A program made the position numbers and the translations under genes. Under the pieces are notes generated by a model. That model was given only the letters and a program-made list of their open reading frames with translations. It made no database searches and was not told where the DNA came from. From NCBI RefSeq assembly GCF_037392515.1, contig NC_090294.1, forward strand, positions 14,411,038-14,475,037: a DNA stretch of 64,000 bases, given 5' to 3'. The DNA is from Haliotis asinina (Eukaryota). Of this stretch, positions 6,587 through 54,465 are shown piece by piece. The first letter of the stretch is position 1. Every line of letters starts with the position of its first letter.

Positions 6587-8198
6587 CACCTGGAAATTAA
6601 TCAAGCAACACCCCAATTTTTTCTATTGGAGCAACTTTGAAGTGTTCTGACAATCAAAATATGCCGGGTTGATATAGTTTGACACTTTTTTATTCAACAG
6701 ACGATCTCTGACAAACAACTTAAAGGGAAAAAGTATCAAGACTTTGCTTTATTGCAACGAAATCCAAATTCTTAAAACTGTCTTAAATTCATGAAAAAAT
6801 GGACACAATTTACTATTCATCCACAGACGTTGTTGTCAGGTGTATTAACACAAATGTCACATGGAAAGAAAGAACAGTCATCTGAGAGTCTGCACACCGA
6901 CTTTCATCAATATCTAGTGTGTCCTCCCTGCGCACGCACCACCGATTCCAGACGCCTCCTCATTCCTTGGATGAGTCTCCGGATCTGATTCTGGGGGATC
7001 CTGTTCCACTCCTCATGCAGGGCAGCCGTCAATTCGTTGAGATTATGGACTGGTGGGTCTCTCTGCCTCACACGACGGCCAATAAAGTCCCACAAATGTT
7101 CAATGGGGTTGAGGTCAGGGCTCATGGCAGGCCATGGAATTCTGTCAATTGCATTTTGCCGCAAAAAATCATTTACAGCATGCGCCCTGTGAGGTCTAGC
7201 ATTGTCGTCCATAAATATGGGTCTCGTTGCCAGAGGATGGTTCTCAAAATGAGGTACCACAGCCCTGTCAAGAACCTCCTGTTGGTAACGAACACCGTTA
7301 AGGTTGCCACGGATGGTAATGATATCCAACTTGCAGTTCATGGAAATGCACCCCCATACCATAACGGAACCTCCCCCAAAGGCCACAGTCTCCTGGATGT
7401 TCCGTGGAGCCATTGCTGTGTTCCTCTGCCTCCAGACCCGAGTACGACCGTCCACCATGTGCAGCAAGAACCGGCTCTCATCTGAGAAATGGACCTTCCT
7501 CCAAGAGGCAATGTTCCAGTGCAAACGGTCATTACACCAGGCCAGTCGGGCTGCCTTATGGGCTGGAGACAGTCTGGGTCGCTTGATTGGCCTCCTTGCC
7601 CGGTATCCTGCAGCTTTCAGACGATTCCGAACAGTCCTGTTCGAGATGGGTCTCCCTGGAAGCCACTCCTGTCTCAACCGAGAGCTCGAGTCGAAGGACC
7701 TGCGCCGTACAAGTCTCAGTAAAGCTCTGTCCTCCCGGACTGTGGTCTTCCTGGGTCTTCCTGGTCTAGGCAGGTCTTTAACTTCATTAGTGGCCCGGTA
7801 TTTTTTCAAAAGTTTTGAAATTATGGAATGATGTCGTCCGATTTGAGTCCCGATTTGTCTTAGAGACATACCAGCATTCCTCATGCCGATTATTTGCCAA
7901 CGAGTGGCCTCTGATAATTTCCTACGTGCCATGACATTGAAATGAATGAAAAACCGAATGCAATCGACAACCTGCGCTTGTAAACACCCCAGGGAAAAAG
8001 TGCATTTTTCGAAAGTTGAGGTTAAAGCAATGCACGTGCGCTGTGCAAGCTTCACGCGCGTCATATCAACCCATGAAAAGCTCATGCTGTATGTCAATAC
8101 ATCAAAATTGAATAATCAATCATCAAAATTACTTCGTTAAACTTTGTTAAGTTTTTATGTGTCTTTGAATTTGGTGTTGCTTAATTAATTTCCATATG
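6587..8198 (-). mobile_element. Tc1/mariner-superfamily (Tc1-like, DD34E) DNA transposon, apparently full length (~1.6 kb), flanked by TA target-site duplications
   Basis: 26-bp terminal inverted repeats: cacctggaaattaatcaagcaacacc at 6587-6612 versus the reverse complement of 8173-8198, catatggaaattaattaagcaacacc (24/26 match). TA lies at 6585-6586 and 8199-8200. The element contains an intact transposase ORF. Confidence 0.85.
6907..7932 (-). CDS. Tc1-like transposase, 341 aa, uninterrupted
   Basis: ORF with start MARRKLSEATRWQIIGMRNAGMSLRQIG (paired-like HTH) and a GRPRK AT-hook. The catalytic triad is D in HFSDESRF, D in MDDNARPH and E in NPIEHLW, with 34 residues between the last D and E, which gives DD34E. 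The ORF track extends the frame upstream to 8097, but the first Met matching Tc1 N-termini is at 7932-7930. Confidence 0.85.
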   Translation of the reverse strand: MARRKLSEATRWQIIGMRNAGMSLRQIGTQIGRHHSIISKLLKKYRATNEVKDLPRPGRPRKTTVREDRALLRLVRRRSFDSSSRLRQEWLPGRPISNRTVRNRLKAAGYRARRPIKRPRLSPAHKAARLAWCNDRLHWNIASWRKVHFSDESRFLLHMVDGRTRVWRQRNTAMAPRNIQETVAFGGGSVMVWGCISMNCKLDIITIRGNLNGVRYQQEVLDRAVVPHFENHPLATRPIFMDDNARPHRAHAVNDFLRQNAIDRIPWPAMSPDLNPIEHLWDFIGRRVRQRDPPVHNLNELTAALHEEWNRIPQNQIRRLIQGMRRRLESVVRAQGGHTRY

Positions 8199-11100: not shown

Positions 11101-11437
11101 CTATTATTCAATGAGATATATCCCCGAAGATTGCTATAAATGAATGTGCGAATAAATGTTTCAATATTTAAGAAAATGACCAGACTCCGTAAATAATCCA
11201 TAGCTGGACACATTACAGTCCCATGAAATGTATCTTGGGGCGGCAAGTATGATAAACCATCGATTGTATGGTCGCTGGTGCCCAATACAGATCTCTGTTC
11301 GAGATATAGCACTTCTTAGATGAACTTGGTCATTGATGGATTGTGTATAGAAGACCTTGATTTCACAGAGGATGGACCCTGTTGTAGCCTCCAGCTAACC
11401 TGACTTATAATTACCAAGATCACAACTGTTTTATTTA

Positions 11438-11611
11438 TGTATGTATGTATGTATGTATGTATGTATGTATGTATGTATGTATGTATGTATGTATGTATGT
11501 ATGTATGTATGTATGTATGTATGTATGTATGTATGTATGTATGTATTTATTTATTTATTTATGTATTTATTTATTTATTTATTTATTTATTTATTGTTTG
11601 TTTGTTTGTTT
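11438..11611. repeat. Compound microsatellite (ATGT)n-(ATTT)n-(GTTT)n
   Basis: atgtatgt... runs from about 11438 to 11546, then atttattt..., then gtttgttt. The ORFs at 11437-11644 are repeat translations. Confidence 0.9.
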
Positions 11612-12779: not shown

Positions 12780-13585
12780 TCAACCACAAGCGTAACTAAC
12801 CCAAACAATTCCAAACAAAACGGTGAAGAATATTCTCTTTTCTGAAGTTTCTAAACTGTATTTTTGCCGTTTAGGGGCATAAAAAAGAGTTTTTATTCAT
12901 GATATTTTCAGAACAATAGAGAACACATTTTATACACTTACATATGTTGGACACCACATGACACCACAATGCTGGCATACATATATGTTAATTGAGTAAA
13001 CTAAATAAAAATACTTATTGTTTTGTCAGCAACCTACCATACTATTTCGTATAAAATATGAACCTTTATCAAATACATACTTTAAATGAATGTGCGAATA
13101 TAAGTTTTGATATTCAAGAAAATAGGTCAACTATGTATAAATGTGTATGATGCAATTGCAAGCAATTGTGTAATAGCACAACAATCACAGACCACGGCGT
13201 AAAATAACATTTTGAAAACTTTCAGACACGCACATATTTTCGTCGAACAATATGGTTCATTACCATTAGTCCAGCTGGTCATGGAATATGGTAGTCTAAA
13301 ATTTATCCCATTTGAACCGTGTCAGAGCCAAGGAAACAGTACGATTAACCCAGAAAGCTGTTGCTTAATGATCATTCGTCGTCCTTGGCTTTTAAGGTCA
13401 GTCACGATATGGCTGCAATACTGCCGATGTGACGTTAAATGTTAACTCACTCACTTTAAAGGTCACGAACAGCCGGCGTGAAACCTACAAAATATTTATT
13501 TGCTTTCTGTTGTTGTTTTTTTTAAACCAGTCACCTCAAACGGGTTTTTTACATACTTAAAATCAACGGAACAAGAACATACCTC

Positions 13586-13964
13586 TCACGTGAACATGCC
13601 CCTCACATGAAGATGCCCCTCACATGAACATGCCCCTCACATGAACATGCTCCTCACATCAACATGGCCCTTACATGAACATGCCCCTCACATGAATATG
13701 CCCCTCACATGAACATGTCCCTCATATGAAAATGCCCCTCACATGAACATGACCCTTACATGAACATGCCCCTCACATGAACATGCTCCTCACATGAACA
13801 TGTCCCTTACAAGAACGTGCCCCTCACATGAACATGCCCCTCACATGAACATGGCCCTCACATGAACGTGCCCCTCACATGAACATGCCCCTCACATGAA
13901 CATGATCCTCACATGAACATGCCCCTCACATGAACATGTCCCTCACATGAACATGTCCCTCACA
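13586..13964. repeat. Tandem repeat, 17-bp unit (ctcacatgaacatgccc) x ~22
   Basis: Regular 17-bp periodicity with point variants. Each unit contains CACATG. Confidence 0.9.
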
Positions 13965-16092: not shown

Positions 16093-16566
16093 CACCAAAA
16101 CCTATGTCATTACAGAAGAAAACCTATGTCAATACAGAAGAAACCTGTGTCAATACAAAAGAAAACCTATGTCAATACAGAGGAAAATAAATGTCATAAG
16201 AGAAAACGTACGCCAATACAGAGGGAAAGCTGTGTTAATATAAAGGAAAACGTATGTCAATATAGAAGGAAATCTGTGTCAGTATAAAGGAAAACGTATG
16301 TCAATACACAAGACACCAATGTCAATACAGTGTAAATCTATTTCATAAGAAAATAAAACGCATGTCAATTCAGGAGAAAACCAATGTCAATGCGGTAGAA
16401 AACGATACGGTGGAAAACCTATGTCATTACAGAAGAAAACCAATGTCGTTAGAAAAGAAAACGTATTCAACACAGAATAAAACCACGTCACTGGAGAAGA
16501 AAACCACGTCACTGGAGAAGAAAACCATGTCACTGCAGAAGAAAACCTATGTCATTACAGAAGAAT
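16093..16566. repeat. Tandem repeat, ~22-bp unit (agaagaaaacctatgtcaatac) x ~21
   Basis: A 22-23-bp period throughout. The ORF at 16362-16664 (KKTTSLEKKTTSLEKK...) is repeat translation. Confidence 0.9.
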
Positions 16567-22856: not shown

Positions 22857-23835
22857 TTAAGCTGTACATGCACCACTAATTACAGTGTCCTGCTAGTCAC
22901 TGTTTACATCGCTATGACTATAGTAGTATGAATTATAGTAGTGAAAAAGTGATTATGGTGATAGAGGCGTGTGACTGTAGATCCAGAACAATTCACTACG
23001 TAAGTCTAATGCCGATACTCAATTCTACCTATGAACATGCTCTATTCATGTCAGTGCTAATGGCGAATCCACAGATCAAGCATTTGATACATTCTGAGGG
23101 AAAAAGTAAAAGGAGTTCCTATATATTTTCCAAGGTTTCTTCACAGGCTGTGTATCGAATACCTTGTGAAGGAACCTGGAAATAAGTAAGGGAACACTTG
23201 TGCTTCCTTGTGATCCCTTATTTTCCCCTCGGTATACACAGATGTTGTGGAGCTAAGTATTATTATTTCACGTAAGTCTGATTACAGACTGTATGATCAC
23301 AGCATTGTTTCAACGTGATATTCTGTTCAGCTTGTCATGGAGACGAATATTTAGATATTCTGGCTTAATTAAGGCGGATATTCACTACCGTGTTGATGAG
23401 TGATGAACACAAATTAGATGTTCGATTGAAAAATATTTCAGTGTCTAGTGCAGGTGAGAATATGTATATCATAAATAATATTTTTCATTGAATCACACAT
23501 TTCAAACTCAAGGCATGGTGAGGGGTGGTTTTAGATTAGTAAATAGGCTATCACACTGTTCCTCAATGTGCGGAAGGCTGATATTTGACATATGTGTGTC
23601 ATGAAGATTTATCAGTTGCCACTTATAACACCCGGATATACACGGTTAGAATCAATTTTGAAACATTGTTCATTACACGGAGACTATCGTGTCTTTACGG
23701 TCTTCTGGTGGGGTTAGTCGGATGACTAGGTATAGTGTGGTCACAGATTTTGAAAGGTAAAAGAATCGCCTCCCTTTAGGATACATACCACGTTAGAATT
23801 ACCCAGCCTGCGCATGTGTTTATGATGTTTTTAAA

Positions 23836-24260
23836 AGAGGGCCATGCTTGGCGTTGTACTGTCATGTGGGTTGTATATGCACAAGCCGTTACAGAAACAG
23901 ACAGGATTCCATATACTGTACATCCTGTTGTGGTACCACTGTATACATATGGCCATTGAAAACGAGAGTCATGGTTGGCGTTGTACTGTCGAAGTGGTTG
24001 TATGTGCACAAGCCGTTATAGGAATCGACTGAATTCCATATACTGCACAACCGCTAGTGGTATTTGTATGCACAAACCGTTGTAAACGAGGGCCATGGTT
24101 GGCGTTGTATTGTCGTGTGAGTTGTATGTGCACAAGCTGTTATAGGCACAGACACAATTCCATATACTATACAGCCCGGTAGTTGTATTATCGTACACAC
24201 CTGACCGTTGTAAACGTAGGCCATGACTGCAGTTCTAGCTGGTTGTATTCACATCGTGTA
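23836..24260. repeat. Tandem repeat, ~118-bp unit x ~3.5
   Basis: The unit gagggccatggttggcgttgtactgtcgtgtgggttgtatgtgcacaagccgttataggaacagacagaattccatatactgtacaacccg... restarts at about 23836, 23958, 24083 and 24213. Confidence 0.8.
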
Positions 24261-26262: not shown

Positions 26263-27099
26263 CAAGACACGAGTAAACAAGAAGTCTGTGAAACAGAGAA
26301 ACACACTCAGGCTAGAGCAAACATCCTGAACGATCACGTTCAGACTAAACAAGGATCACTTCTATGATCACGTGCGAAGTTTTCATGTCCTGTACCAGTC
26401 AGTTTCCTAATGGTCATATTTGCGAGGAAGCCGGTATCATTCCCGACGTATCGAACTTCCTAGAGTGTAGTAGAATTTATTCTCCGGGCAGGAAGCGCTG
26501 TGTCTTGTTTCTTGTGGTCATTTTTCCTCGAATTGTTCGTGGTATGTTAGCACTGATATCGTCTTTGCCCACAATGTGCATAAACCATCCAATTCAATCG
26601 ACGCACACTGCGCTTCCGGTTTAACACTCCGTCCAATCATGTAATGTTGAGGTATTCAGTCCGGACCTACATTGTGAATTCCAACCAATCATTTTGCAGG
26701 AGACACGATGGAGCTGCTGTATGATTGTGAGTTGCACGTGGGCAGAGCGAATGGGTTGACGCTCGTAAAGGGCGACGCTACTATACTGCTCATTCCTGTA
26801 ATGAAAAGACAACTCTTTACTTTACCTTTCTAAATATTATTCATCAGCTCATTTAAAACATTGTATACATTTTATTTGCATTCAATAAAACATTTGAAGA
26901 AGTGAAAACATTTATCAAAAAAAGTTAAAAGTAAAAATTAAAGTTTACAAGAAACAGCGACAAAGCAAGCACAATAAAAGCAGACAACATATACATCGAC
27001 CGAATTTAAGACTAACAATATTCATAAATCATCACATCGAGGTAGGACTTCATCAGAAAAAATGCATTACCACTAAGGACCTTTATATTAAACAATGTC

Positions 27100-28436
27100 T
27101 ACTAACGTGTAAAAGCGGATGTGAAACCCAGCCGCACTGAATGCCGGGAAGGGGAGGGGGCGGACTCGGCGCACGTACGACAGGTGCAAAGGCACTTTTC
27201 TGTTTGACCGCCGTGATCATATTGGCAGGTGAGAAAGAGAAAATCCCGGGGGCACAAGTCCCTGACAGGCCCGAGGGGGCGGAGAACTGATGGGGAGGCG
27301 AGTGAGACGTAGCAACTGCAGAAAATAAAACAAAAAGGAAAAATAAACAAACCGAAAACGGCCAGAACTGGATCCAGCTCCACCCCCTTCCCAACTCTTG
27401 TCACACATATCTGTCAAAACCTACTGACCTTTAGATTTAAAAGAAGAAACGAAAAGACCATTTTTGAAATACAAGAGAGACAGATAGAAATGAAATTAGA
27501 AAGCAAAATAAGAACGGACCGAAGAAATTAAAAACATTCACGAATAAAAAATACAAAAGTCTTACCAGCTCCCAATCTTCCTGCTTCGTCTCTGAGAAAA
27601 TGATCTAAACCTGAAGAAAAAACAAAAAAAAAAATAACAGATCTTGTCTGAATTCTGTTTGTTAATTTAGATTGGGTATGATATCTAGGATGGATGAATT
27701 GATTTGTTTCACGCATGGATGATTCGAGTCATTAGGCTCTGGTACAACTATCGCAGCAGGGTATCAATAAAGAATAAAGAATTGTTTTACTGCCAGAACG
27801 CGTATTAACGGCTCGGTATCCTGCGACAAACGCTTCCATCCGCTGTGTACCCTTGGTAACGGGGTTGCCGCGACATAATGGCGTAGCTTTTGTTACAGTT
27901 AAGCAGAGTCTAAATATTACAGCTATCGGCCAACGTTGTGTTTCCTTTTCGGAAATAAACACAGCGTAGTAAAAGTCACTGTTTAATTCTCCAATAACCG
28001 GCCGTTTCGAGCGGAAATTGAGCTACAATTGTAAATTGATCTTCGCATTATCCTCGCGCCATGTGCGCGTTATGCTAGCTGCCGAGAGTCACATATGATT
28101 ATGAGCAGACGAGTTAGGATTAACGTACTTTCAAGCGACACGAACTCAAGTTGGGCTTAAGATGGCGGCCCATCGATTTCCCGCCAAATGCGATTGAGTT
28201 CAAACCACGTGCGCGAAATGTTCAGTGAGGTCGCAGAGAGGAGCTTGCACATATTCCACGTCTATTTGCTTGTGAATTATCAGTGAACTATAGATTGGAA
28301 TGTCTGAAACGGTGTGTGCATGATTTGTTCATCACGAGGTCCCATGACGCCTTAGCCAGGCTAACAAGTTGTTGATCAACCTATTAGAAGCGAGTCCCGC
28401 GAGATCTCGGAGAAGCTGGCGCTCCGGTCCAACACA
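27100..28436. promoter_or_regulatory. CpG-rich, promoter-like interval (possible bidirectional promoter region)
   Basis: This AT-rich genome has a local CpG excess here. GC boxes gggggcgg lie at about 27155 and 27270. An E2F-like tttcccgcc lies at 28177-28185 and an E-box cacgtg at 28206-28211. Candidate exons on both strands flank the interval. Confidence 0.3.
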
Positions 28437-28556: not shown

Positions 28557-29294
28557 GTAATTTTGCACTTATTGTTACAAAATATTGTGTGTCCACAAAT
28601 ACCATCGGTTCCAAATGATGTATTGTTCCACTGTAGCGAATATAGAGTAGAGTAAACCCCTGGCTTCATTCCTATAGCCAACACAATGCATAATATGACG
28701 GCAAATTTAACCGAGATTGACGGCTGTCTAACGTTTATTCCGAAGTAGCGTTGAGATCATTGATTATAACTGGTCTCAACTCCCACAAGCGCAGAGGTAA
28801 ACATTGGTACGGTCGCACTATTATTGTCCTGTCTCATCGTTGTGGATTTTGAATTCTTCAGGTAGAAATGGGAATTACTCTAAAAATTGTGCCGTTATAT
28901 CGCAGCATTTACCCTTTGCGCTTTAACGTAATGGTATATCAATGTCGGCACAGACATCAATGACAACAATTAAAGGTATTTCGATTCTTGAAAACTGTTA
29001 TGATAGAGCATTTGGTCGTATGACAATTTTCATTTGAAGTTAATCTATAGTCTACATGATCGGGATAAAAACACTACCTTTAATTTTTACAGAAAGAGGA
29101 AACTTCAGAACGTGAATGTAACATAGTGTAACATGATGAATAGGATATGAATAACATGATATCAAGAATTTCAGATCATGCAATAAAGTGCAAAATATTA
29201 TAAACACCAGTGCCACAATGGTTGAAGGATATGAGGTAAGCCAGCAGCAACGAAATGACAATGACGAGGAAGCGTATCTGACGTCACAACTTAC

Positions 29295-29441
29295 CCATAT
29301 TGCCTAGCGCACCAGCACTTCCGTGATACCCGTTCATTCCCGGCGTGCCTGCGTAGCTTCCGCTGTTTGTACTGTGTGGCGTGGATCCGTTGGAACCGTA
29401 ACCACGGGGCGATACGCTAGAACTTTGGCTTCTGTTGTAGC
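29295..29441 (-). CDS. HLH-protein gene, exon C (S/G/Y/N-rich low-complexity region: YNRSQSSSVSPRGYGSNGSTPHSTNSGSYAGTPGMNGYHGSAGALGNM)
   Basis: Acceptor tttcttccag|GC and donor ATGG|gtaagt on the minus strand. The phase (2 nt at the start, 1 nt at the end) is exactly compatible with exon B. Confidence 0.45.
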
Positions 29442-29629
29442 CTGGAAGAAACAGTTAGTTGCAAATGAAGAGGACCAAAGAGCATCAATCAGTTTCCAAT
29501 AAAATTTCCTCATATTTGGAAAAAAAATAAAAGTGGCATTATGAAAATGAAAATCTGATGTTTTCTTTAAGTTCAACGCATTATGAGCATGCAGTGGATC
29601 TGCCACTAGGCTTTAGTAATAAACAAGAC

Positions 29630-29860
29630 AGAGAGTGACGTGGGTTTTACGCCGCATTGAACAGTGTTCCAGTTCCATAATGGTGAGCCAGGTTTATCTG
29701 TCTCAGCCTTTTTACCACTTTGGTGGATCCAAAGGGTAATACCAAAGCAAAAACCATAGTCGGGGCGAACCTAGATTCGAACTACGATCATTGGTTTCTG
29801 GCATCTCTTCACAGAACGCTGAGGCACTTTAGATAACTGGGTCACTCGTATACCATACAC
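29630..29860 (-). repeat. tRNA-derived SINE copy inside the HLH-gene intron
   Basis: The reverse complement has gtagttcgaatctaggttcgcc and the tail ttcaatgcggcgtaaaacccacgtcactctct. Confidence 0.55.
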
Positions 29861-30291
29861 AACATAAGCAGGTGTAGATGACAATAGTACATGCTTTACA
29901 AAGAAGCACAGAAGCTACAAAGGTCGACTACATCCACTTTGCAAAATTGCTGTTCATTATTATCAATAAAATGTGTACATAACATGCATGAACTTTTACT
30001 GAGTCTTTTCCTCGGGAGATTCTAGCCATCAACGTCCATGCGTCTAAACAGCTGTAATTTAGAGACTGCTTTTTAACAATTTATTTTGTTTCGTAAGAAG
30101 CCACATGCACGCATTGTAATGAAATATTCTCAAAATGCTCCAACACATCCATCGCTACATCTATCAACTCAGAAAGACAGTCAAGTATTTCAGGAAGCCA
30201 AGGGAGGCCACTCTGGTTAGAGCAAAGGGAGGCAACTCAGAGGCGATGTAACTAAGAAGGTTGGAGCGTCACCAACCTTCTTCCCACTGAC

Positions 30292-30469
30292 CGGTGACTG
30301 TATCGGCCACGCTGACCGCTAGCTGACCAGGGTAGGTGTTGAATCCGGACATTGGGGATGTGTTGTTCATGGCAGGGGACCTGGGGGCTGGAAGTGATAG
30401 CTGGTTGGGGTTGCGGGGCATACTGTACAGTGCCTCGGCTAGATCCGCGGCACGTTTTAAGATTATTTC
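30292..30469 (-). CDS. HLH-protein gene, exon B (helix 2 and linker: [59 protein letters not shown])
   Basis: Acceptor tctctccag|GAAATA and donor CACCG|gtcagt. The 178 nt are in phase 0 at the start and phase 1 at the end, which joins in frame with exons A and C. Confidence 0.5.
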
Positions 30470-31216
30470 CTGGAGAGACAAAAATACATATATAACAATA
30501 ATCACCAAATAAAAAGCATTGACACTTCACTATATCGCAAAAAATGGACGCTGGTATCTACTGGCTTGACTGACATGCTTTAAGATAAAGTGAAAAGGAA
30601 TTAACATTTCAGAGTAAACTGTTGCACCGATTCATAATTAGGAGAAATGGTCGTTTCTGAAGCTGAACGCAAACGTTGGAAACCAAGTAATATGTAACAT
30701 GATAACATGAGATATATAGTGTCATGTTAACTTTGAATCATGTTAAGAACTTGTGCCCGAATGCCCGTTACTGCCAATGTCTCACATAGCAGTATTCACC
30801 GCCAGGTTCCAACAGAACGGACATAAATGGATTTGATAAAGTTCACAGAGTACCAAAAAATATAATATTTATCCCTTAGATCAAATATCACGAAACACGA
30901 TTTTAAACGCAATAAAACCCAACAACTAAAATCTGCACATCGAAAATAGCTAATCCATTATCACGACGGTGGAGGAACTGGTGAATGCAACACTATAAAC
31001 TCTTCCGCCGATAATTAGAGCAATAAAAGAGAACGGGTTAGTGGCTACCTGCTAACAGATGTTCTCATCCAAAGCTATGACAATTATTGATTGGGTGTAA
31101 CTTTCTGAATTATGTTCAAAGGCACTCGAAAGGTAGCGGTGCATATCATTGTTAGCGGGAGCGAGTTGACGGAGACCAGTGACTAAGAATGATATCATCC
31201 TGAAAACTTGTCTTAC

Positions 31217-31305
31217 TTTGGGAAGTCGCTCAGGGTCCCCGGGATGGCGTGGTACCAATTTCATGAGGCGTTGAAACCCGTAGTCTATCGTTGGTTCTGT
31301 TAACG
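31217..31305 (-). CDS. HLH-protein gene, exon A (helix 1 and loop: [29 protein letters not shown])
   Basis: Strong acceptor ttttcttttcccacag|CG and donor CCCAAA|gtaaga. The joined A+B peptide [38 protein letters not shown] fits the HLH pattern (compare AP-4 INAGFQSLKTLIP...KLSKAAILQQTAEYI and Id CYSRLKELVP...VSKVEILQHVIDYI). Confidence 0.5.
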
Positions 31306-32478
31306 CTGTGGGAAAAGAAAACATAAAATTCAATGCAAAAAATCTTGAAGACTCATTTCTCTGAAAACAAAACAAGAAGCGACGTAACCTGAATTCAGCC
31401 TCCTGATAAACACAGCACCGTGACATGTTACGCATTGTTATATTAATTAATGATGAGCGTGTGGTGTTCGCACAATGACCATGAAAAGGAGAACGGTGTT
31501 GGTTATGGATCTGTACTTAAGTTGCTATTCAGTACGTAATTTCTACTTTAATTCACACTGTTCGTGATATTATCTATGTTATCTGTACCATATGTAATAC
31601 TGTTGGTCAAAAAAGATCCTGTGTTAGACATATGTTGTTCCAGCCATGCGTGTCACGTTCAATCTGGATAGTTCCGCCATCGCGGCTGCAGAACTGGTAC
31701 GGAAGCCATTTTGATTTGACATTTCCCTTCGGAATACTGACTGTCTAACCGCTTGTGTTCACTGACGAGGTCCATGAAGCGTGTCTTTGGTAGAAGTGTT
31801 GGCAACGACAATAGCCAGAGTTCTGGCTTGCAACAATATCATGAGGTAAATATTTCATGAGGAGATACCACTTTAAATGAATAATGCACACACGCAATAT
31901 GGCGCGACGAAGCTGGCATATGTCAAGTTCATTCACGATGGATCCACGCAATACCGTCAATTGACAATTAATCCACAGGAGCCCGCTGTACGCTTCGATG
32001 CGGCATAGCGGTTTACAATGGTGCATAGTTTATGGGAGTATAAAATTATGTAGTCTGTGAATGTCTGCGGTTTGGTTCCTACCTGATATGAATTTACTGG
32101 TAAAACCGTTTTATTAAGAAGCTAAGAGTTCATGACGTCCAATTTTGGCTAATAGTTTTATGGGCGCTCGCGTTTCGCTTGACTGCGTTCTCTCAGAGAT
32201 CACTAGCCAAATTTGAGTCCATATTCGCGGATGACGAAAACAAAATGACAGCTTTTAGTTATCAATGTAATAAGAGGTGACTGTATTTAAGATCGATATC
32301 CCCCTTCTGCCAGTGTTAAACCAAAGCCCCAGTCAGGAAATGGGGAGGTTCCTACGGAGGAAGGATCGGAAACAGCGAGAGTGCCCTTCTCCTAAATTTC
32401 CACACTATCACGACAGCCCCCGACTATTGCCGTTTAAGTGATCGGTAATTTTCGGGATCACTCGTTTAAAGAGACGCT

Positions 32479-32492
32479 TCCTGATTGGCTGT
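32479..32492 (-). promoter_or_regulatory. CCAAT box (NF-Y type, cagccaatcag on the minus strand) about 1.2 kb upstream of the HLH exons
   Basis: Plus-strand cctgattggctg matches the extended NF-Y consensus on the minus strand. Its position and orientation suit a promoter for the minus-strand gene. Confidence 0.25.
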
Positions 32493-35400
32493 TTTCTTCT
32501 CTTGTCTCTTTGACATGCGACTTGGATGAAAAAGTGGTCGGGGATCTATGAGAGGTTAATAACTCTTCATATACGAGTATGGCCAAGCTAATACACTGTT
32601 ATCGATTCGACAAGCCACCAGGGTTTGGGGGAGATCTGGACGCCTTTCATCACCACTGTCGGCGTGAGCAAGATTAGTTCAACGTCATCATTATGAATGA
32701 GAATTTCCCAGAGAGTGAAACCTGCACCTAATATTAGCATATTTGTTTACGGAATTCGTTTCTCTTTATTTGGACATGTATATGATCGAGACAAATTGTA
32801 GAGAACTCAAAACCTCTAATTGATGCATGACCGCGTTATTGGCTTGTCAATACTACAGGAGCGGTTGCGATTTTGACAGCCACTGTTTATTTGCACTGAC
32901 GTTTAGGCAGCACCAAAAAATAGAACCGAAAAACAAACGGTCCATGTTATGTCTTGCTCTATGGTAATATCAGGAAAACCACAAAGAAGACACAGATCCT
33001 CACTCACGATGGCTATGAGTTAGAAAGACCTAAAACTGTTAAATAGCATGTTAAATGAAATTTAAAACACTTTCACAAAAAGAGTTTCTTTTAAATAATG
33101 GCATGTCAGCAAGTACACGTTTAACATGCCTACATATACTAGCAACTCGTCCCTCTCTGAAACGGTAAATAAGCTTACACGATGCTCAGTATCAGCTCGT
33201 CTATCGGAGCTTTCATTTATTAATAATTTTATGGGAAAATAGGATTTGCGATGCCCAACAACTCTGGATCTGTTTCAATGCATACACCCCGTCTATGACT
33301 GTTAGACTAGAACAATTTGTCGCCTTATATTGTCTGACGTGAAATTCATTAATTATGGACGTTTCGCTGGCTCCTTCGGTATAGTCCTGGTTCATTTATG
33401 CACATGCCATTGTACATTGGTGGAGAAAGCTAAGTAATTTATCCCAAGGGGGCTACTGTTAGAAACAATTGATGTTGGTAAAGGGAGAGAGATGGTCCGT
33501 GAGCTGGGATTACTGATAGAGAATTAAAGTAACTGAATGCTATCAGATTGCACCTTCCCTGGAGAAAAGTCTGAAGTGAAAATATGAAGACATACTTGTA
33601 CATTCCATTTAAACACTACAGTGTTAACGAGCTGTCTGGAGAACCCGCCACTTAAGCCCGACTGAGCACCAGTCTCCGCCTTGTTTACATTTTGGTCTTA
33701 TTTCAACATTTCTTGACGATATCGAATAAATCAAAAACAAGCTTCAATGTTGATCTTGTAAAATTTCCCACAAAGTAGGTGTATTTTTTGCAACCGATTT
33801 TAACAAAAATGCAAACATTTTGACAGGTGTGCTAGTAAGAATATTTTTCCGTGTCCTAACACGTGGCTCTTGTTGGAAACAATGGCGAGACATACGCGCA
33901 ACACTCGTCGGAAGTAGGAACTGGTAAACCGGAAATCAAATCCCGCCCACAAAACAAACTGGGAAGCATCCGAGGCGACAAACAGACATACCAGGGACAT
34001 ATCTCTCCTCTTAAAATGACCATTCAAGTTACCGGTACTTTCAACCAGTCCTCAAGAAATAACATTACGGTCAAAAGTTGATACCGCTTTTGTGCTTGAT
34101 AATATGCCTATCAGTATATTCGTGTATATCACATAGAGTTGATACCAGTTCTACCTTGAAAATAAACCTATCATTTATTTCTTTTTCTATTTATAAATAA
34201 AAAATGATGACAGATTTGTTAGTTTTTTTCAAAGATCAAGGTTCAAATTATACCTATCATCAATTTCCTTGTCTATTTGTGTATGACATAATATTAATAA
34301 TAATAGATTTGGGTTTTTTTAAGATCAAGATACAGATTAATTCAACTTGTGAAAATGGTTTTATTTTCTTGTCGTATTCCACTTTGTCAATTTGAAATAT
34401 ATTCAGATGAGATTATTTATCCTTTGATTATCACAACTGTGGGTTGGTTTCTTTCACCCAAAACATTGTCAGGTCTTCACAAATAAGGTTAAAGTGATGC
34501 ATTTGCTGACTGTTCCAAGTGGACAGTTTTAATTATTTCAACCATTGACGCTGTATAATTAATACGTTAAATATGTATCTGCAGATCTCAAGCAAGGCTA
34601 TCGGAACAATCTCGCCTTCTTTCACAAGAAATATCCTCGAAGAACGAGTGTGAAGACATTATGCTTTGATCATTGAAGGCTATACCGATCGATAATGGAA
34701 AACCTGATAAAAAGAGAGAGCAAGAAAATATGTCTGCCTTTAAGCTATTGCACCGACTGACGCGAGTGTTCATGTTGGCATTTATACGACTTTTCATACG
34801 CGTGCTATTTCATGCATAAATAATGTGTAGAATTCAGTATTGTAGCTACATGGGGAGGACTCTACGTGAATATTAATTTGCAGTTTGGAGAAATATGGGA
34901 ATATCACACGCTTATTTGTTTGCTCAGTACATTGATCGAGAAAGTTGGTTCAGTCAAGTGGTGTACATACTGCTGGGCTGTTCTTAACGTGTGCCTCCAA
35001 GATAGTTTTCCTGAAGAAGCGTTTAAAAAAAGTAAAAGCATTCACCCGGGAGACAAACTCGAGGCAATTTCGCGAAGGATGTGTCCATATGTGCACCGTT
35101 CTTAAGATGGTTGCAAAAATATTAAATAAAATGTCACTGTTTTATTTAATATCTTTCTCGTTTTATAGAAATGTAATGTCTTCTTGAACGAATAAATGTA
35201 GATGTTGAAACATATTTCTCATTCAGTTATTGATGGTATACTCTACTTCATCTAGTATCAAGTATATTCTACTTCATCTCAATATTTTGATCATAATGTA
35301 CTGACTGTGTAAATGCATTAGTTCAGTGAGCAATAAATGTGTTTGTAACACTTCGTCATGTCATGCTCTATTAGATATTTCTACCAAACCAAAATAAACA

Positions 35401-35921: not shown

Positions 35922-36059
<138 letters not shown>

Positions 36060-41815: not shown

Positions 41816-41882
<67 letters not shown>
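41816..41882. repeat. (CT)33 microsatellite
   Basis: An uninterrupted ctct... run of 67 nt. Confidence 0.95.
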
Positions 41883-41969: not shown

Positions 41970-42230
<261 letters not shown>

Positions 42231-45200
42231 CTACTACCAATCCACTCAGGGATTTTCAGATCACATTGAATGATCTTAAAGAAAGACGAAATTGTTGAAC
42301 TCCTAATTTCCAAAGTATATAAAAAACATATTCATATTTGTTAACTTTTTAGATTTTATTGTTTATTTGGTATTATTTTTCTAAAACATCTGCATGCACA
42401 CAATGCAATCTGGTAGAGGGATACACAGTGTGGACTCTCTCACAACAAAATCCCATTTGAAAGGACAGTATATACAACAGAGCAGGATGAAATATATCAC
42501 TTTAAGACATGCATGACAAGACATTTTGAAGAAAGACATAAAGCTGAGATACAGAAAGTTGATAAAGGTGAATGAACAAAATAATAGCTTATTGCACATA
42601 ATTACTGGCATGCTTGAGGGTTGTTTAGACTTAATAACTGTTACTTTAAGATGTAAGAGTATTTCTAAGTATTTAAATTCACTTACGCCCAAGTTCATTT
42701 CTGGAGGAAACTTCCACTTTGCCCCAAAATACATGAGGAATTTGACCATAGCCACTGGACATGTCTGTCAATGCACAGAAATGGGTCAGGTCAGTATTTG
42801 ACCATTTACTGTTACTGTCTTTTAATCATGTGCAAAAGTGTTTTAATGGCTCAAGGAAAATCCATGTTAGGAAAGAAAAGAAACGGTTTTGCACTCCGAC
42901 AACACCTTCACTTTGAATGCTTTAATCCTTCCTTGAACCATTTTGGTTTTTGTAGAAGTTTCAAAGATGGAAATTAGCATTACCAAATTTCGATCAACAT
43001 ATTGCGATTATTACCAAATTCAATTTTAGTTTGAGAGAATTTGATATCATTTGAAACTTCTGTATTTAACATGATTTAAAGGCAAACAATGCTATATGCA
43101 AAACAAAAGAAACGTGTCGTTACAACTGCAAAACTAAAAATGCTTTTAACCGCAAAAATGTAAAAATATAGATAACTCGTGCATAATATACAACATGGTT
43201 AAATAATTTCACGGTGCTTAAATAATAAACATCTATCGCAATTCGAACATAAGATAGCATGCCGTACATAAAGCATTCAAAACATTTACTTCATATGTTA
43301 TTTATAATTTGGTATTTACTTAAACTAGTAGACAAGTCAATACACCAATCAAACATGGTATCATATCGTAACACTATTTGTTCGAACCATTCAGTATTTT
43401 CAGGTTAATTAGAAATACCCTTTTATCATTAGGAATAATGAGGTTATTTGTTTAATAAACTATCTCATTTGTGTTGTTATTTTTTCCTTTGTTTAAGAAA
43501 CAGTAATCGGACTTATTTGCTATTTGCAATTATCGTGTTGTAGTTATGTTTCGGTTGCTATGAGTAATTAATATTGTTGTCGACTGCCTGACTCTTACAC
43601 TCATTCGTTTATTGTGTACTTATCCGCGTGGATTCCTACGCACTCGAGTGACCCAGCAACTTAGGGAGATGGTGTGAATCGGTTTAAACACTGACGCGAC
43701 AAACGAGCTCTAACAATTATGAAACAGCTTTTGATAACTGAGAGACTACGCGGCTCTGTATGAAATAATTCCAGCAATGACTTTTGGGATGAACCATCAA
43801 AGAACGAACACCACTTTGTGTCCCTCCGGACCCCACGCAGAGAGGCAGGCAACGCCGATGGGGGTAAAGTGCACGTGCGACAAATTACTAATCTTTTGTC
43901 AATTTTGCTCATACTGACATATTAATTTCATGCGAATGAATCCGAACATAAGTCAGAAAATGTAATTGTAATTCAATATGTCGCGAACATTCATCACACC
44001 AAAGTAGATTCAGCGCGCGGACGTGGGAGAAGACAAGCACGCTTATGTTTTTGGTCCTCGAGTTATTCTATTGGTTGTTTGTACACACACGCTGGAGAAA
44101 CCGACAGTGGGCCCGCAGAGAATACACGGGAAGTATCTCTATTGGTGAATAAGGGATTCACATTCCGTGCGAGACTGTTATAAGACACTTTGCCGGGGTA
44201 TTTGGTTGTTAGCGCGGTTTATATTCGAGTGGAATGTGGCAGTGTGGCCACAATAGAATACAAAGACCTGCACATCTCCGGGGACTTTGGTTCGAAATCA
44301 AAAGCAGTTTTGCTGAAAATCGTATAAGTGCAAATATTCTTCATGCAGGGGGGTCTTCCTTCCAAAGGCAACAGAAATTGTTTTCTGAACCTCAAGATCA
44401 ATCAGCTCGTGATAAGTGAACTTTAATTGTGTTTGAAAAAATACAACCGCGATAAGATATTTTAAAAACATGGTTGTCGGCGACTGTTAACAAAATTTGT
44501 TAATCAAATGACGTCATGGCAGTTGTAACCTGTTTCCTCTCACGACCGAAGCACTTCTTCTGATCTTACTTTCATTTGCGCCAATTTCCAGGCGTCAGTT
44601 GGAAACTTAACAAACGGTATTCATTTAGAGACTGTGTTTTTTCCCCTACAACAAGGCACATTTGAAATAACAGGAACTACCAGAAAAAATGTCGGAAGTA
44701 AAGGACAAGGTGAAAATACTCAGCCAGATGGCCAACTCGGACTGGCTAATTAGATAGTTGCAAATTTAATGAAAACTTAGCCCCGCTCTTCACAGTGGAA
44801 CAGGGGAGACTGAAGCAGGGTCTGAGTCGGGCATGCGACATTTCCCGGCAATCCCCCGGCCATGAGATTTGTCGTTTGCTGTCAATCTCGTCTGAGCAGT
44901 GACCTTGACCTTTTGTAAGTATACCCCACAAAGCTTTCAAATATGGAGGAACAGAAGGTAAAGAGTCCCTAAGCTCTTTAAACAATAAGTGTCAAGCATT
45001 ATTTTTGTGTCAAAACCCTCGATTCAATTATAATCGATTGCGCCATTCCAAAAAGGTTAGCCCCACTAGCCTCGCTTTTGTCAATTCGATTTTCAAGCGT
45101 GTGGATGCAATCAGATGAATTCCCGTCCATGCTACCTGGTTTTCCCTTTCACTTAAATAACGTAGTCCCCGTGCCAAGGTCCTTGTCTGATGTCGTGTGC

Positions 45201-48200
45201 GTCAGCGCCGCGTAGTCATCGTCCCAGACCCCAGATGCTTCGAGAAACCAGAAGCAGATGGGACGCTAGAATCTGATTTTGGACAGCTGGAGCCCAGCCA
45301 ATGCTGAATCACGTGTTATTGTCATTCTAATTAAAGCTGTAATCTTCGATACGCTTGTAATTGTAAACTGTAATATGAGCGCGTCTAGAAGAATCTCCGG
45401 GGCAGCAATAATTGCTGACGAAATGAAATTATTCCCTTTAAATTCTACTACACATCGCCGTTACATCATGTGCACGTTCGGCGTTAAGTCCTTTAACTCC
45501 CTCCGATATAGTAGCACGTTAGATAAAATCCCTTAATGTTCCTCAAACGATTGGAAAAGGCCCATGGAGCGATGACCCGGCTTCTTGGCAGTTCTTAATA
45601 TTATTTTTCACCCCATTTTGCTCACCCAACGGTATAATGATAAATTAAAGTTTTAGTGATATTAATGCCCCTTTATGCATCGCAAGCGCTGGAGATGTTA
45701 TTTAAAATGACGTAAGAATAAATTAAGTTTCCATAATCAGTGCTTTAAGTTCCTAATAATGATTTTAATTTCAAATCGAGGGACAAAATGCAAAGCAACT
45801 GATTTCACGGTTCGATATTCTTAGATGGAAAAGTAAGATTACCATCAGCTTTATTTCTATTTTGTGTTGCATTGTTAACAAATTTCAACAGGGAAAACCT
45901 CTTCTTTGTACTCTCTTGCCTTGAAGTGGAAATAACGGTATTTTCAGACATGAAATAAATCCATTATCATTAGTATGGGCAATATCGTGTTGAATAATAA
46001 AATACTTAGTATGCAAGGTGAGCCTTGCCAATATCAATCTAAATCAATTATAAACCAGCGTCGTGTCAAATAATCCAGATATATTCCTCACAAACGATTC
46101 CTTTTCAAACGAGGTGAAGAGTCTACTCCTATATTTTGTACGAAACAGTGGGATAGGTGAGGTGGTTATGGATTCGTCTGACTGGCCGCCATTTAAATAT
46201 ATGTATGACTACTTGTAGACAGAAGAACAAGCCCTAACAGGTGACTGATTACGAATACCTCATTAGCTTATTGGATCTAGATTCCCTGCTGTAATACCCC
46301 ATACCAAGGAAATTAGCCGTGCAAGGTGCCGGACTACTTTGTTGCGGCGTATTGATTTCCGGGGTTGTAATTGGTCAGGTGGGAGTAGCAATCAGCCTTT
46401 AGTCAACACCTCTTCCGCCAGGCTTGTAAGCCTATGCTGCGGAACTATATTTTGATTTCTTAATAGGAATTTGAATGACATCTATCGGGAGTTTTTGTAT
46501 CATAATGCCCGTTAAATGCATAGTAATTGAGCATGAACAGAGTGTTCAATGTTAATTGGTTTTCCATCGATAAATCTGAGTTTTTGAACTTGTTTAAGAA
46601 TTAAAAAGCATGGTTATATTTTTATCGTAAAGAATTATGTTTTATTTATAGCTATAAATTGATGTTTGACGATGTAAATGAAAATGTTCATTTTTGAAGG
46701 TATTATATCGGGTTAATAACGTCAGCTGTTCTCCATCGTTAATCTTTTCAATACTAATCCACAGATTAACACGGTTATGTATACTTTAAATATTCTGTAT
46801 GTATATTTTAAGTACTTGATCTCGTAAGAGGTCAGAATTCTTAACACATTTATTACATACACGTTAATAAATAAACACACAAGTTAATAAATAAATAATA
46901 CTTTTTAGATTGATATGTAAGGTTTTTTTATTTTAGAATTGAATAATGCTGCAATTCAGTTAATGAAATTATGTATACATATTATCGTCTTACCCCCTTC
47001 AGTTGGGTCCAAGCGCCGAGCCCGCCGTCCATGTTTGGAGTTATTGTGTACGAACATGTTATCAGACACAGCTAACAAAGGGCCATCTATCGCAACATTT
47101 GTACAAACAGACACCTGCAAACGAAGTACATGAATATAATTACATGTAGAGACACGTGGTGACAATATACGTTTATATAAGTAACAGTAGTTTTGGTGGC
47201 AGTAGCATCTCAACAGTTGTTAAGAGTAACATTGCTACCAGTAATGATGCAACTAATTATAAATTTTACGAAACTACGTAGTTTATACCATCTAAGATTT
47301 CAGATGCAGCTGTCAGGTATTGGCGAATGTTTTGTATGTTAGGTTACAAATCTAAATATATACGGCAACAACCGCTACCTCTAATAGTACTAGGTGCACT
47401 CATAACAAAACTAATCACGAAAAAGTCAAAGATACGGTGTTGCAGTGATGTCATCAAAACGTTTTCACTGTTTTAAGGTGAAATTATATCAGCATGAACA
47501 AACAACGGATTATCTTCAAAATGCTCAATGCTCACTGCGCAGTGCTCACCATACCAAAATTAAACTAATTCCTGTAATGGTTTTCAAACAATGTTTACAA
47601 AATTTCCGCATAAAGGCGTGTTGAAGCAAATCATATTCCTGTGAATAAAAGCAGAATACTTTTTTAGAGTTTTGCGCTGTTTCATGTCGAGGGAGTTCAA
47701 ATCTATCGACCCGGACCTAAATATCCGACGCGTTGTTTTAAGCCGCGTCGAGATGTTTAAATCCCGATTCAGTCTGCTCAGTCAAGCTTCGCCTAGTTGG
47801 GCTCGTCCTCATTTTCGAAGTGTTTTAGTTAATGAAGTTTTTTACGGTAGTCCAAGTCCCCCATTTAATACCTCTCTCCTAGGTCCCCGCACTTTAATTT
47901 CTACTGCAACCCCGTAAACATCAAGTGATTGACAAGATGATAGTGTTTGTTAAAACGGGACTAGATCTAAAACACTGTGGATTTGTTCCATGCTGTAGAT
48001 CGACTGAACTCAATTGACAATGAAAGGGTGATCATCGCAAAGCAGATTCCCTCAGATAATCGATCCTCGCACATTACGCCTAGCTTTATAAACTTTACAA
48101 AAATGGACGCCTTGACTCACGAACCAATTGGTTTCAGCCAATTCCTTTTTCTCCGGTGCTACATTAGAATCGGGATGCTAACAGTTACCACGGCCAAACA

Positions 48201-50707
48201 AACCCGCTCGACTATTGTGTGTTGTCAATGATCGGAAAATTACGAGCGTGTCCCCAACACAAGTTGCACAAATATAAATTACAAGGCTATAACCCTCCCA
48301 AGCGCCATTTCCTTCCTTCAGCAATAAAGGGAGTTAATCACGAAGCGCTATAATGAAGCTATTGCCCCTCAATGCCTTGTTTGACAGTTATAAACTATCG
48401 CGTATTCGCTAGACAATGAATATTTTATACGTCCATCCAACAACCAAGTTTCCTTTTTTGAGCTGGCCATGTTACAGCTACGTACGCCTCTACTTAATGC
48501 TTGCAAACAATGTGGATTGTGTAAACGAAAGGTTCTGATTTCATCAAACTGTCAAATGTATTTCCCGGATTTCATTGGGATCTACGTGTTTTAGAGAGCA
48601 ATCACTTAATGGTTTATTCACTGCTGACGTCACTCAAATGTTCCCTGCATAAATACAAACATCAACTAATGCTCTCGCGAACAAACTTGAGATCTGTGGA
48701 ATAGAATGTAAATTTCATTCGTGGATTGTGACTGAAATATTGATTTGGTCTACCAGTCCTTGTTGAAGTAGACAACAGACAGTCTTGCAGAGAGTAGATG
48801 TGAATAGCGTATCGCGTATACTAGTCACTGTTAAGTCTGTCAGGCAAAACTAAAAAATCTATACGTCATGGTTGGCATGTCATTTTTTGTTTCCTAACAA
48901 AGATATATTGACGTCATTTCATGTCATTTTAAGAATCGTTACCATGACTACTTCACTAAAGAGTCACACTTGCTGTCACTGAGTGAAAGGCGGTAACTAT
49001 GGCAGTGGAATGATATAGGCATCATAAACTAACACAAATTTTAAAATGCATTTATTAATAAATATATAATTATCATTTGCAATGCGGTCTTTGGACCTAC
49101 CTGGAATCGTCTCATGTCGCGTGGGTTTCCAGCGTTCTTTAAGCAGTTCTGGTTGCATTTCATGAAAAACTTCAAGAAAAATCTGAAATTAAATAAAATT
49201 TCAAATCATTCGATCGTAGACAGTATGTATATCAAATTAACGAAACAATGCCTGCATCTATGTAATAACCTACCCCAAACAGGAACACCATTCCGCGAAG
49301 AAACATATATCCTTTATCTAGAAATGTAAGTCTCCAATATGCCAGTATTAACAAGAAAAGGCTCAAAAAGTCAAATTTTCTAACAGATAGATGAGAGCCT
49401 TCTCTATTCACCTCGTGGCAGGAGATACGATGCGACTGAAGCTACATACTGCCGGGGATGGTTTTGTTTGGGAAAATATTCTAACTTGTCTCTTGAGAGC
49501 TACACAAGCAAATTGATCACTGTTCTATTATACGGACAGACAACGCCGTGCCGTCACAGCAACGGTGTCAGGGGGATGGGAAATGAGGGGGTTTTGCTCC
49601 CCCAACTTGAGATTTACATTGTGCAAATGTTTACTTGGATTAAATTCACCCTGGAATAAAAGTGGCAATTTTGCATATTTGAAAGGTGATCCAATTTTAA
49701 ATGCTATCTGACATAAGCTGGTCTTGGTTTATGGGGGCTTAACGAAGGATTAATAAAGGCTCGTATTGCACTGCGTGAGGTACGGTGATGAAACCACGTT
49801 GAAACCATCATATGGGTTAACGTGTAATCAACGAAGTAACTATCTCCCATAGCGTAAACACATCAACTCGTGGCGGAGGGTTTTTTCAAGATAAATTTTC
49901 ATAGGCCACCGACAAGAGAGTAGCCATGCGTCTCGGATTGGATTGATGGATAATGTATCCGTGTAGCCACTCTGTCATTAGAGCAGCGATTGTAGTCCAG
50001 TGTTTGCCGGTACGCGCCAAAGGGTTCGCAATTTTGATGAGATATGATTAATTGATGAAAAATCATCGTAAATATTTAATGAAGAAGCGAATCGGCTTTG
50101 ATCTGCGCATTACGGGGACCATCAACACAGGCCTACCGCTAGTGATTGCCATCAAATTCAACTACCAATACCGCTTGATATAAATCCGCCCATCCACACT
50201 GAAAGGTTTTTTAAATGTTACAAGGATTTGCAATGAGAGTTGGTCGTGGAAAGGATCTTATTTCAAAGCTGATGCTATTAAGGTATAGTGTGTCAAACCT
50301 CTCAATATGGCTTGGCTTTCTTTATTATGATGTATGGCCAAAGGGAAGCCATGCTAGTACATATGGCATGTCTACATGCTATATAGGCGGGATGTAGGTA
50401 ATGTCAACACGCTGACACGGAACGCGGTGTGACTTGTTGCCTAACCAGCTCAGCATCATCCGACAACAGTTTAGCGGTCCCAGGGCACAAGGGAATTCGC
50501 TAAACAAGTTGCTATTTTTTCCACATATTCAAATCCCCAATGCCCTTAACAGTTTGTTATTTCCACATTAGACGGATTTGATTACACGTGGAAGTTGTAC
50601 ACGTTGTAGTAGCTGTCATCCTCCATCAAACAACAAGTCAACACGACCAACACACCCTTTCACGTCCAATACACTGTGTCATGTTTAACGGTAAAATTTA
50701 ACAGTAT

Positions 50708-50826
50708 ATTTGATCACTCGAGAGAAATTTAAGAATGTATATAAATCATATTTTCTACTGGATTTTCATGTTATCACTCTAGAGAAATTTAAGAATGTAT
50801 ATAAATCATACTTCATTTTGGATTTC
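50708..50826. repeat. Tandem duplication, ~60 bp x 2
   Basis: tgatcactcgagagaaatttaagaatgtatataaatcata...ggattttcatgt is repeated as tatcactctagagaaatttaagaatgtatataaatcata...ggatttccatgt. Confidence 0.85.
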
Positions 50827-52699
50827 CATGTATGAACTGCAATATAATTAACAATGCATTAAACCTTTCAGTTTGTAGGTTAGTATACTGTTATTGTTTA
50901 CATAACGAAGGTACGTCTTAACTCTTAAAGTTTGACATCATTACAACACTATTTTTCAAGATTTAAACGTGATGAAATTGTTAAAATACTTTGTTTGTAT
51001 CACTCTCAATTAAATTATTACACCTGTGAGCCATTTCGTAATCCATCTAAAAGTAAGTTATTTATGGCAAGATTCCGAACACATATTTGCATTCGAATTT
51101 CGTGTTGACAGTAACGCTCTTTAACGTCCACCGAACAGGACACTGAATAATTCACAACTCTTCACAAGCCTCGGGGGACAGGCTCTGGTTGTTAATTACA
51201 ATGGTTAATCAACAAATATATACATACAAGCTGCAAGGTGGAGTGTTGCAGGAGCCTAGTTTACACCTAATTGTTGTTGTCAGTCTCTTGAGAATTGCCT
51301 GTACATTCATACGTCGCAGACCTTTATACGGAATAAGTTCCTCCTTTCAAAAAGCATAAACAATGAACGTTAACAAAAGGAAATATTGCCACAGAGAGAC
51401 GCGTACTAGTTCTAACACTGAGTACAAACAATTCATAATGAATAAAAATATTAATTACCTGCTCCGTTGTTTTAATGTGGTGCATTGAATTTTGATTTTT
51501 TTATATAATTATCTGTATTTAGAAAAGAAACGTTTTCTGAACGCTTTGAATATTTTAGATATGTGCTTCAACCTCACATCAAATAGACGCAATTACTCTG
51601 TCCAATGAAACGTGAGTTTGAAGCTTTTAGTCGCCTATTAATTTGTTTATGGAAAGAAGAGCGGCGTGAAAACTCGGGTTTGTCCGCTGTCTGACCGACT
51701 AATGATGCTTTACATCCGGGGATGACTAAAAGGCTTTCCTATCCACTGATCACGAATGTTTGTTTAGATTTCTAAGAACGCGTACACAATTTGTTTGCAA
51801 AATCGTTTAATTACCAGAGGGAACTTTTGAAATCAAAACTGAAACACCTGTGCATAAACTAACTACACTAAATTGCATTAAAAATCGTTTCAAATCTTCG
51901 AGTAATTACGTGATAAGAATCAAAATCACACTGAAAGAGAGATCAACTTCAGATAAGTGTCACATTGACTTTAATTATAGGCCCACTCAGCTAAACGACG
52001 TAAAGTAATTAAGTATTCTCAATTGTTTATCGATGTTTTTACACAGTGTCGCAAACAAATTGGCCCTAAATAATACATATAAAGAGAATTTATCTAACTC
52101 GGCGAATTTGGGCAGGTTGGTGCCGGATTTGCATCATGGAATCCTTGCTCCAAGTGTGACGGAATCAAAGACACTATTGTTGGGGAATTGAGTAACGCGT
52201 CCCCCTAGGGAGGGACCGGGTGGTCAGCGGAGGGATGGGGGTCAGTTAAACGCCCTAATTGCTGGCATCCATCTGCTGACTAAGTGTTCTCGTGTCGTGA
52301 TTAGGGTAAACAGGTGAAGATGTGTAAGTAGCAGGTTGGGGTATTACATTACGTGTAAAGTTGGGGGGACCCCACGGAGGGATTGCACAATGGTGGCTGG
52401 TGAGCGCATGGGGTCTATCGCATAGTGATATATACAACACAATCGGGGGATGGTATAACAAGCAGATTTGTTACAACAAGGAGTGTGATCTTATCAACAA
52501 ATCAATTGACTCCCAGCATGGTAAGAGATTGCTGACACAACATTTGCCCCATCTCCTGAGGATTCAACCTCACCCCCACGGAGTTGTCGACAAATCGGTC
52601 CCTTGTTGCAAATTAGCCCCTTGAAACAAGAAGGCATTTTACTCATAAACTATTACACTTTTCAACGTAAATGGCAAACCTGTTAACATATATCATTCC

Positions 52700-54365: not shown

Positions 54366-54465
54366 AACACCAGCACCAGTAGTAGTAGTAGTAGTAGTAA
54401 TAGTAGTAGTAGTAACACCAGCAATCGCGGCAGCGACAGCAGCAACAGTAGTAGCAGAAGCGGTA
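54366..54465. repeat. Trinucleotide microsatellite, (AGT)n with AGC/CAG variants
   Basis: agtagtagtagtagtagtaatagtagtagtagtaacaccagcaatcgcggcagcgacagcagcaacagtagtagcag. Confidence 0.85.

Follow-up and report, generated by a model that had tools for sequence, protein, structure and literature searches.

In the window (the whole stretch of 64,000 nucleotides analysed here), the three minus-strand exons at 29295-31305 almost certainly belong to the single-copy abalone COE (Collier/Olf-1/EBF) gene, where they code for the dimerisation motif and the initial part of the activation domain. COE has been studied extensively as a regulator of neuronal, muscle and immune-cell identity. The gene is already known: the family is well characterised, the abalone gene has been annotated and cloned, and its presence here holds nothing unexpected. 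The value of the analysis lies mainly in correct annotation, abalone COE already having RefSeq isoform models. In addition, the locus is a clean example of the ancestral COE exon structure with a single helix 2, combined with a terminal exon that is read in two frames.

Exon structure and extent of the gene

Exons were found by tblastn with homologues, and splice sites and phases were verified for each match. The mouse EBF1 query served as a lead only; the acceptor of the 209-nt alternative exon was placed at 27315 by comparison with Haliotis isoform X2. Eleven coding exons were found in the window, all of them intact and all with canonical splice sites. They are given here in the direction of transcription, with slashes marking exon boundaries and the supporting evidence in brackets.

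49101-49182, minus strand: C-terminal part of the COE DNA-binding domain, the most upstream exon in the window; ttcag/A...CAG/gtaggt (100% identical to Haliotis COE residues 186-214 by tblastn; within the Pfam COE1_DBD match)
46994-47114, minus strand: last exon of the COE DNA-binding domain, 40 residues (tblastn, splice sites, Pfam COE1_DBD)
42687-42764, minus strand: alternative cassette exon in the variable linker between DNA-binding domain and TIG, encoding DMSSGYGQIPHVFWGKVEVSSRNELG; acag/AC...GGC/gtaagt (100% identical by tblastn to the isoforms that carry it)
42072-42202, minus strand: first IPT/TIG exon, ending ...MLVWSE; a tandem acceptor at 42217, 15 nt upstream, adds GFLFP (tblastn, splice sites, Pfam TIG)
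35933-36059, minus strand: second IPT/TIG exon, 42 residues (tblastn, splice sites, Pfam TIG)
31217-31305, minus strand: helix 1 and PxxPxxP loop of the COE HLH, 30 residues, followed by a phase-0 intron (COE1_HLH, 3mlp, isoform identity)
30292-30469, minus strand: the single helix 2 (23 residues) plus the first activation-domain residues, with the next intron in phase 1; second donor at 30277 (COE1_HLH, isoform identity)
29295-29441, minus strand: S/G/Y/N-rich activation-domain exon, encoding YNRSQSSSVSPRGYGSNG...LGNM (tblastn, Haliotis isoforms)
27566-27610, minus strand: 45-nt cassette exon, encoding LDHFLRDEAGRLGA, skipped in some annotated isoforms (tblastn, splice sites, isoforms)
27107-27315, minus strand: 209-nt alternative exon, 70 residues, with a 10-residue block conserved in vertebrate EBF (tblastn, Haliotis isoforms)
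26689-26795, minus strand: terminal coding exon, reading (G)MSSIVASPFTSVNPFALPTCNSQSYSSSIVSPAK after 27566-27610 and E (GAA TGA) after the 209-nt exon (splice sites, isoforms)

The helix 1 exon (89 nt), the helix 2 exon (178 nt) and the activation-domain exon (147 nt) are bounded by cccacag/CG...AAA/gtaaga, ctccag/GA...CCG/gtcagt (acceptor context ctctccag) and cttccag/GC...TGG/gtaagt, respectively. Joined, they form one open frame whose translation agrees letter for letter with the peptide proposed in an earlier note, and re-reading the minus strand over 28900-31600 returned exactly the exon coordinates and phases given there. Both junctions, 31217/30469 and 30292/29441, are used in annotated Haliotis isoforms. 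The claim of a spliced minus-strand gene at 29295-31305 with AG/GT boundaries and mutually consistent phases is thus borne out, and the observation of three exons carrying the helices and the tail is confirmed; use of the junctions is judged from agreement with annotated isoforms and a single cloned cDNA. As a calibration, reading from the letters alone fixed the three exons and their phases exactly, without naming the COE family or the extent of a gene of more than 37 kb.

The exon with helix 1 ends at a codon boundary, which places a phase-0 intron between the two helices, and the exon with helix 2 ends in phase 1, 36 codons past that helix. In the ancestral COE pattern, a phase-0 intron separates helix 1 from helix 2 and the next one, well downstream of helix 2, is in phase 1 (PMC2394523). 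The intron pattern of abalone COE agrees with this arrangement.

Upstream, the TIG exon 35933-36059 joins 31305 in phase, so that the end of the TIG domain reads ...GRFVYT/ALTEPT, as in EBF1 and in all COE homologues. Searched against Pfam, the assembled partial protein shows the canonical order COE1_DBD, TIG, COE1_HLH, and an S/T/P/G-rich tail follows the HLH. COE1_DBD (PF16422) scores 118 bits (cut-off 27) and covers profile positions 170-231 of 231 only, TIG (PF01833) scores 55.4 bits (cut-off 20.9) over positions 1-84 of 84 and is encoded by 42072-42202 plus 35933-36059, and COE1_HLH scores 105 bits. A perfect (CT)x33 microsatellite lies in intronic sequence at 41816-41882, on the downstream side of the first TIG exon and some 190 nt away from it.

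Tblastn of 49183-64000 with the mouse EBF1 sequence and with Haliotis residues 1-185 gave chance-level matches only for the N-terminal residues 1-185. Since these residues were not found in the window, the COE gene runs off its right end, and the exons for this N-terminal part, zinc knuckle included, are expected beyond base 64000. The zinc-knuckle motif H-x3-C-x2-C-x5-C occurs as HEVMCSRCCDKKSC in Haliotis orthologues whose C-terminal 346-372 residues equal the product of the window. Compared with full-length Haliotis COE, the window is without the first 185 codons. The COE coding exons span 26689-49182, i.e., at least 22.5 kb, and the gene takes up more than 37 kb, which is more than half of the window. 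The suggestion that the window is a regulatory-gene desert with one small gene does not hold, as COE spans these positions and continues past 64000.

Family assignment of the helix-loop-helix and alternative readings

The peptide joined from the three exons matches the Pfam family COE1_HLH (PF16423) over the full profile (positions 1-44 of 44) with 107.2 bits against a cut-off of 27 (E=3.3e-31). With the generic HLH family PF00010, the same peptide reaches 14.9 bits (E=0.023), below the gathering score of 20.7, and assignment to the classical HLH family fails. The only solved structures that match the joined peptide are those of mouse EBF1 (3mlp, E=8.9e-31) and human EBF3 (3n50 and 3muj), with matches to EBF1/EBF3 ranging from E 1e-31 to 1e-21; the 50-residue HLH segment aligns to EBF1 residues 317-366 in 3mlp. 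In a search of a large protein collection, the joined peptide found COE/collier proteins only, with molluscs at the top (Aplysia 84%, Elysia 83%, Ruditapes 81%).

The loop carries PRHPGDP and hence the PxxPxxP motif, which has been noted in the EBF3 structure (PMC2923972). The proline of LTEPT, which had been taken as a break in helix 1, belongs to the invariant family motif EPTIDYGF and aligns with NEPTIDYGF of EBF1 and EBF3; we see no sign of a broken helix. The 64 kb contain only one minus-strand match to helix 2, the sole other match being on the plus strand with E of about 0.5. With one helix 2 and without an H2d duplicate exon, the gene is a non-vertebrate-type COE. A single helix 2 is found in all non-vertebrates (PMC2394523).

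Suitable combinations of the exons found here match annotated isoforms of H. cracherodii, H. rufescens, H. asinina and H. rubra residue for residue (0 mismatches over 346-372 residues). This set comprises eight isoform models and the H. asinina cDNA ADQ39028.1 (HasCOE); cloning of the H. asinina COE cDNA and its larval expression have been described by Jackson et al. 2010 (PMC2990012). In RefSeq, the COE proteins of these four species are named transcription factor COE1-like, COE3-like or collier-like. A single residue differs from the alternative-exon isoforms of H. cracherodii and H. rufescens, the window having F instead of Y in ...PPHQ(F/Y)SAP.... When the 346-residue partial protein was used as query, the best match was Haliotis cracherodii with 93% identity, and this value falls short of full identity because the linker cassette had been left out of the query. 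Nucleotide sequence was compared with the Logan contig L001 (DRR299178, 5142 nt), which aligns with introns and exons of window positions 29801-34960 at 80-89% nucleotide identity and, given this level of identity, presumably comes from a related species.

The reading that the locus is a pseudogene or decayed COE copy takes its support from the N-terminal exons, which are missing from the window; that the window stops within a long intron is a simple explanation for this. All 11 coding exons are intact with canonical splice sites, and the protein is 100% identical to several Haliotis orthologues whereas the introns differ by about 12-20% from the abalone-like contig. The combination of exon identity with diverged introns indicates strong purifying selection. 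Moreover, COE is single-copy outside vertebrates (PMC2394523, PMC2990012). Taken together, we regard a decayed copy as very improbable.

The earlier note had described an HLH-type motif without a basic region and had proposed an HLH-only (Id/emc-like) or otherwise atypical member. The motif itself is confirmed, and "atypical" applies, since it is the atypical HLH of COE proteins; the Id/emc-like part did not stand. According to that part, the exons would encode an Id/emc-like HLH-only small protein that acts as a dominant negative by tying up class I/II bHLH partners. Id/Extramacrochaetae and abalone COE indeed both have no basic region before helix 1, abalone COE would, like Id/emc, use its helices for protein-protein contact only, and the weak, sub-threshold similarity to PF00010 fits such a protein as well. 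However, Id/emc proteins are PF00010 members that lack a DNA-binding domain and function as inhibitors, whereas abalone COE fails PF00010 while scoring 107 bits with COE1_HLH, brings a DNA-binding domain of its own and is part of a family whose members bind directly to DNA in dimeric form (PMC2923972). The exons upstream are compatible in phase and code for TIG and the COE DNA-binding domain; once they are joined, the product is identical to full-length COE proteins, which in the Haliotis orthologues have 532-594 residues. In addition, the HLH fold of EBF3 is reported to be without significant structural homologues (PMC2923972). The odds of an Id/emc-like protein at this locus are minute.

That the gene encodes a classical bHLH protein with its basic region in an upstream exon, a reading that only the caveat of the earlier note speaks for, is practically inconceivable: no exon of the ERxR type is present, the upstream exons instead encoding IPT/TIG and the COE DNA-binding domain, and the nearest one, 35933-36059, joins in phase as the second half of IPT/TIG.

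Alternative splicing and C-termini

The abalone COE gene contains five variable elements, namely the linker cassette, the tandem acceptors of the first TIG exon, the donor that adds 15 nt, the 45-nt cassette and the frame-shifting 209-nt exon; annotated Haliotis COE isoforms have these splice choices in common with the window. The linker cassette 42687-42764 is present in some annotated Haliotis isoforms and absent in others. Both acceptors of the pair 42202/42217 are used in annotated isoforms, giving proteins with or without GFLFP, and the insert is seen as FLFP/FVFP in proteins of Gigantopelta and Patella. The alternative donor at 30277, 15 nt downstream of 30292, adds QWEEG; other annotated isoforms use it, as does the cDNA cloned from H. 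asinina. Each of these tandem donors is used among the annotated isoforms, with the cloned cDNA taking the distal one, and the read-through GQWEEG is conserved in Aplysia genomic sequence.

The S/G/Y/N-rich low-complexity tail that had been noticed after the HLH proved to be the COE activation domain. Following ...LGNM, the commonest continuation in homologues is GLDHFLRD (13 cases), which corresponds to exon 27566-27610. When the terminal exon 26689-26795 follows this 45-nt cassette, or directly follows 29295-29441, it encodes 35 residues ending SIVSPAK. The 209-nt exon, by comparison, leaves phase 0, the terminal exon then reads GAA TGA, and the protein ends ...HPLLHE. Both reading frames of the terminal exon match annotated Haliotis isoforms. 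Alternative splicing gives isoforms with two different C-termini.

A different 3' end had been suggested in the form of a weak 26-nt terminal exon. The stretch 29052-29077 on the minus strand does translate as claimed (GSVFIPIM*), in phase with the donor at 29295, and no other P[PIV]M-stop peptide exists in the three minus-strand frames of the window. It also loosely echoes the C-terminus of vertebrate EBF, ...G(M/L)(I/V)VPPM. The acceptor, aaaattaaag/, is weak. A regular-expression search of 240 homologues and 21 annotated Haliotis isoforms found neither an ...IPIM ending nor SVFIP, and tblastn of the Aplysia COE locus with the candidate peptide gave chance matches only (E>2), all of which fall outside the corresponding 372-nt intron. 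On the grounds of its weak acceptor and its absence from isoforms, homologues and Aplysia, we rejected this candidate; the real 3' coding exons are 27566-27610, 27107-27315 and 26689-26795. It is very unlikely that 29052-29077 is a real, lineage-specific alternative terminal exon giving a COE isoform that is cut after the first activation-domain exon and ends GSVFIPIM.

Proposed dimerisation, related systems and genomic surroundings

EBF proteins bind DNA as dimers via an N-terminal Rel-like domain with a zinc knuckle, and their HLH serves dimerisation, not DNA binding (PMC2923972). Across the EBF dimer, helix 1 of each chain lies antiparallel to helix 2 of its partner, and the resulting helical bundle is reported to be without significant structural homologues; the TIG domain of EBF contributes further dimer contacts, and the C-terminal part is probably an unstructured transactivation domain (PMC2923972). 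The ancestral H1-L-H2 suffices for homo- and heterodimers of Collier/EBF, and the duplicated helix 2 is a vertebrate addition (PMC2394523). For EBF and Collier, it has been shown that the HLH mediates homodimerisation and that the dimer binds DNA (PMC2394523, PMC2923972).

If the mollusc protein dimerises and binds DNA like its mouse, human and Drosophila counterparts, abalone COE would form a dimer in which helix 1 of one chain lies antiparallel to helix 2 of the other, building a helical bundle, and the TIG domain would help dimerisation by adding interface. The HLH, having no basic region, would make no contact with DNA and would serve dimerisation. Binding to DNA would fall to the N-terminal Rel-like domain and its zinc knuckle, with a coding sequence expected past the window's right end. 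The S/G/Y/N-rich tail would act as a poorly structured transactivation domain. On this basis, we infer that abalone COE may homodimerise through its HLH and bind a palindromic site as a dimer.

The domain order of DNA-binding domain, TIG, HLH and transactivation domain is common to abalone COE and vertebrate EBF1-4 (3MLP, 3N50, 3MUJ). Helix 1 and the loop are near-identical, including the PxxPxxP motif, and the tails share the block SSVSPxGY (SSVSPRGY in abalone; mouse EBF1 was compared) as well as the 10-residue block. In contrast, vertebrate EBF carries a duplicated helix 2 (H2d plus H2a, HLHLH) that arose by exon duplication, whereas abalone has the ancestral single helix 2 (PMC2394523). 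The C-termini also differ, reading ...(I/V)VPPM in vertebrate EBF and ...SIVSPAK or ...HPLLHE in the abalone isoforms. Drosophila Collier/Knot and C. elegans UNC-3 are, like abalone COE, encoded by single-copy invertebrate COE genes, and their homodimers form through the H1-L-H2 motif (PMC2394523). Drosophila COE has lost introns in the TIG and HLH regions (PMC2394523), whereas abalone keeps the ancestral fragmented structure.

Among ORFs of at least 130 residues, we found no further cellular gene in the 26 kb downstream of COE. This region contains an intact minus-strand ORF of 396 residues at 6907-8097 that encodes a Tc1/mariner-type transposase, with Pfam matches to HTH_Tnp_Tc3_2 (61 bits), DDE_3 (50 bits) and an N-terminal HTH_38; among the 2-kb bins of the window, the transposase stretch has the highest G+C content (0.46). 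An A/G-rich minisatellite at 4692-5254 consists of about 26 copies of a 21-nt unit (63-73% matches) with a higher-order period of 63 nt, and it accounts for the strong AT skew of 0.29 in the bin 4001-6000. Further tandem arrays downstream of COE lie at 1837-2233 (86 nt x 4.6), 11432-11594 ((TATG)x41), 13571-13964 (17 nt x 23, 87% matches), 16097-16565 (22 nt x 22) and 23832-24225 (127 nt x 3).
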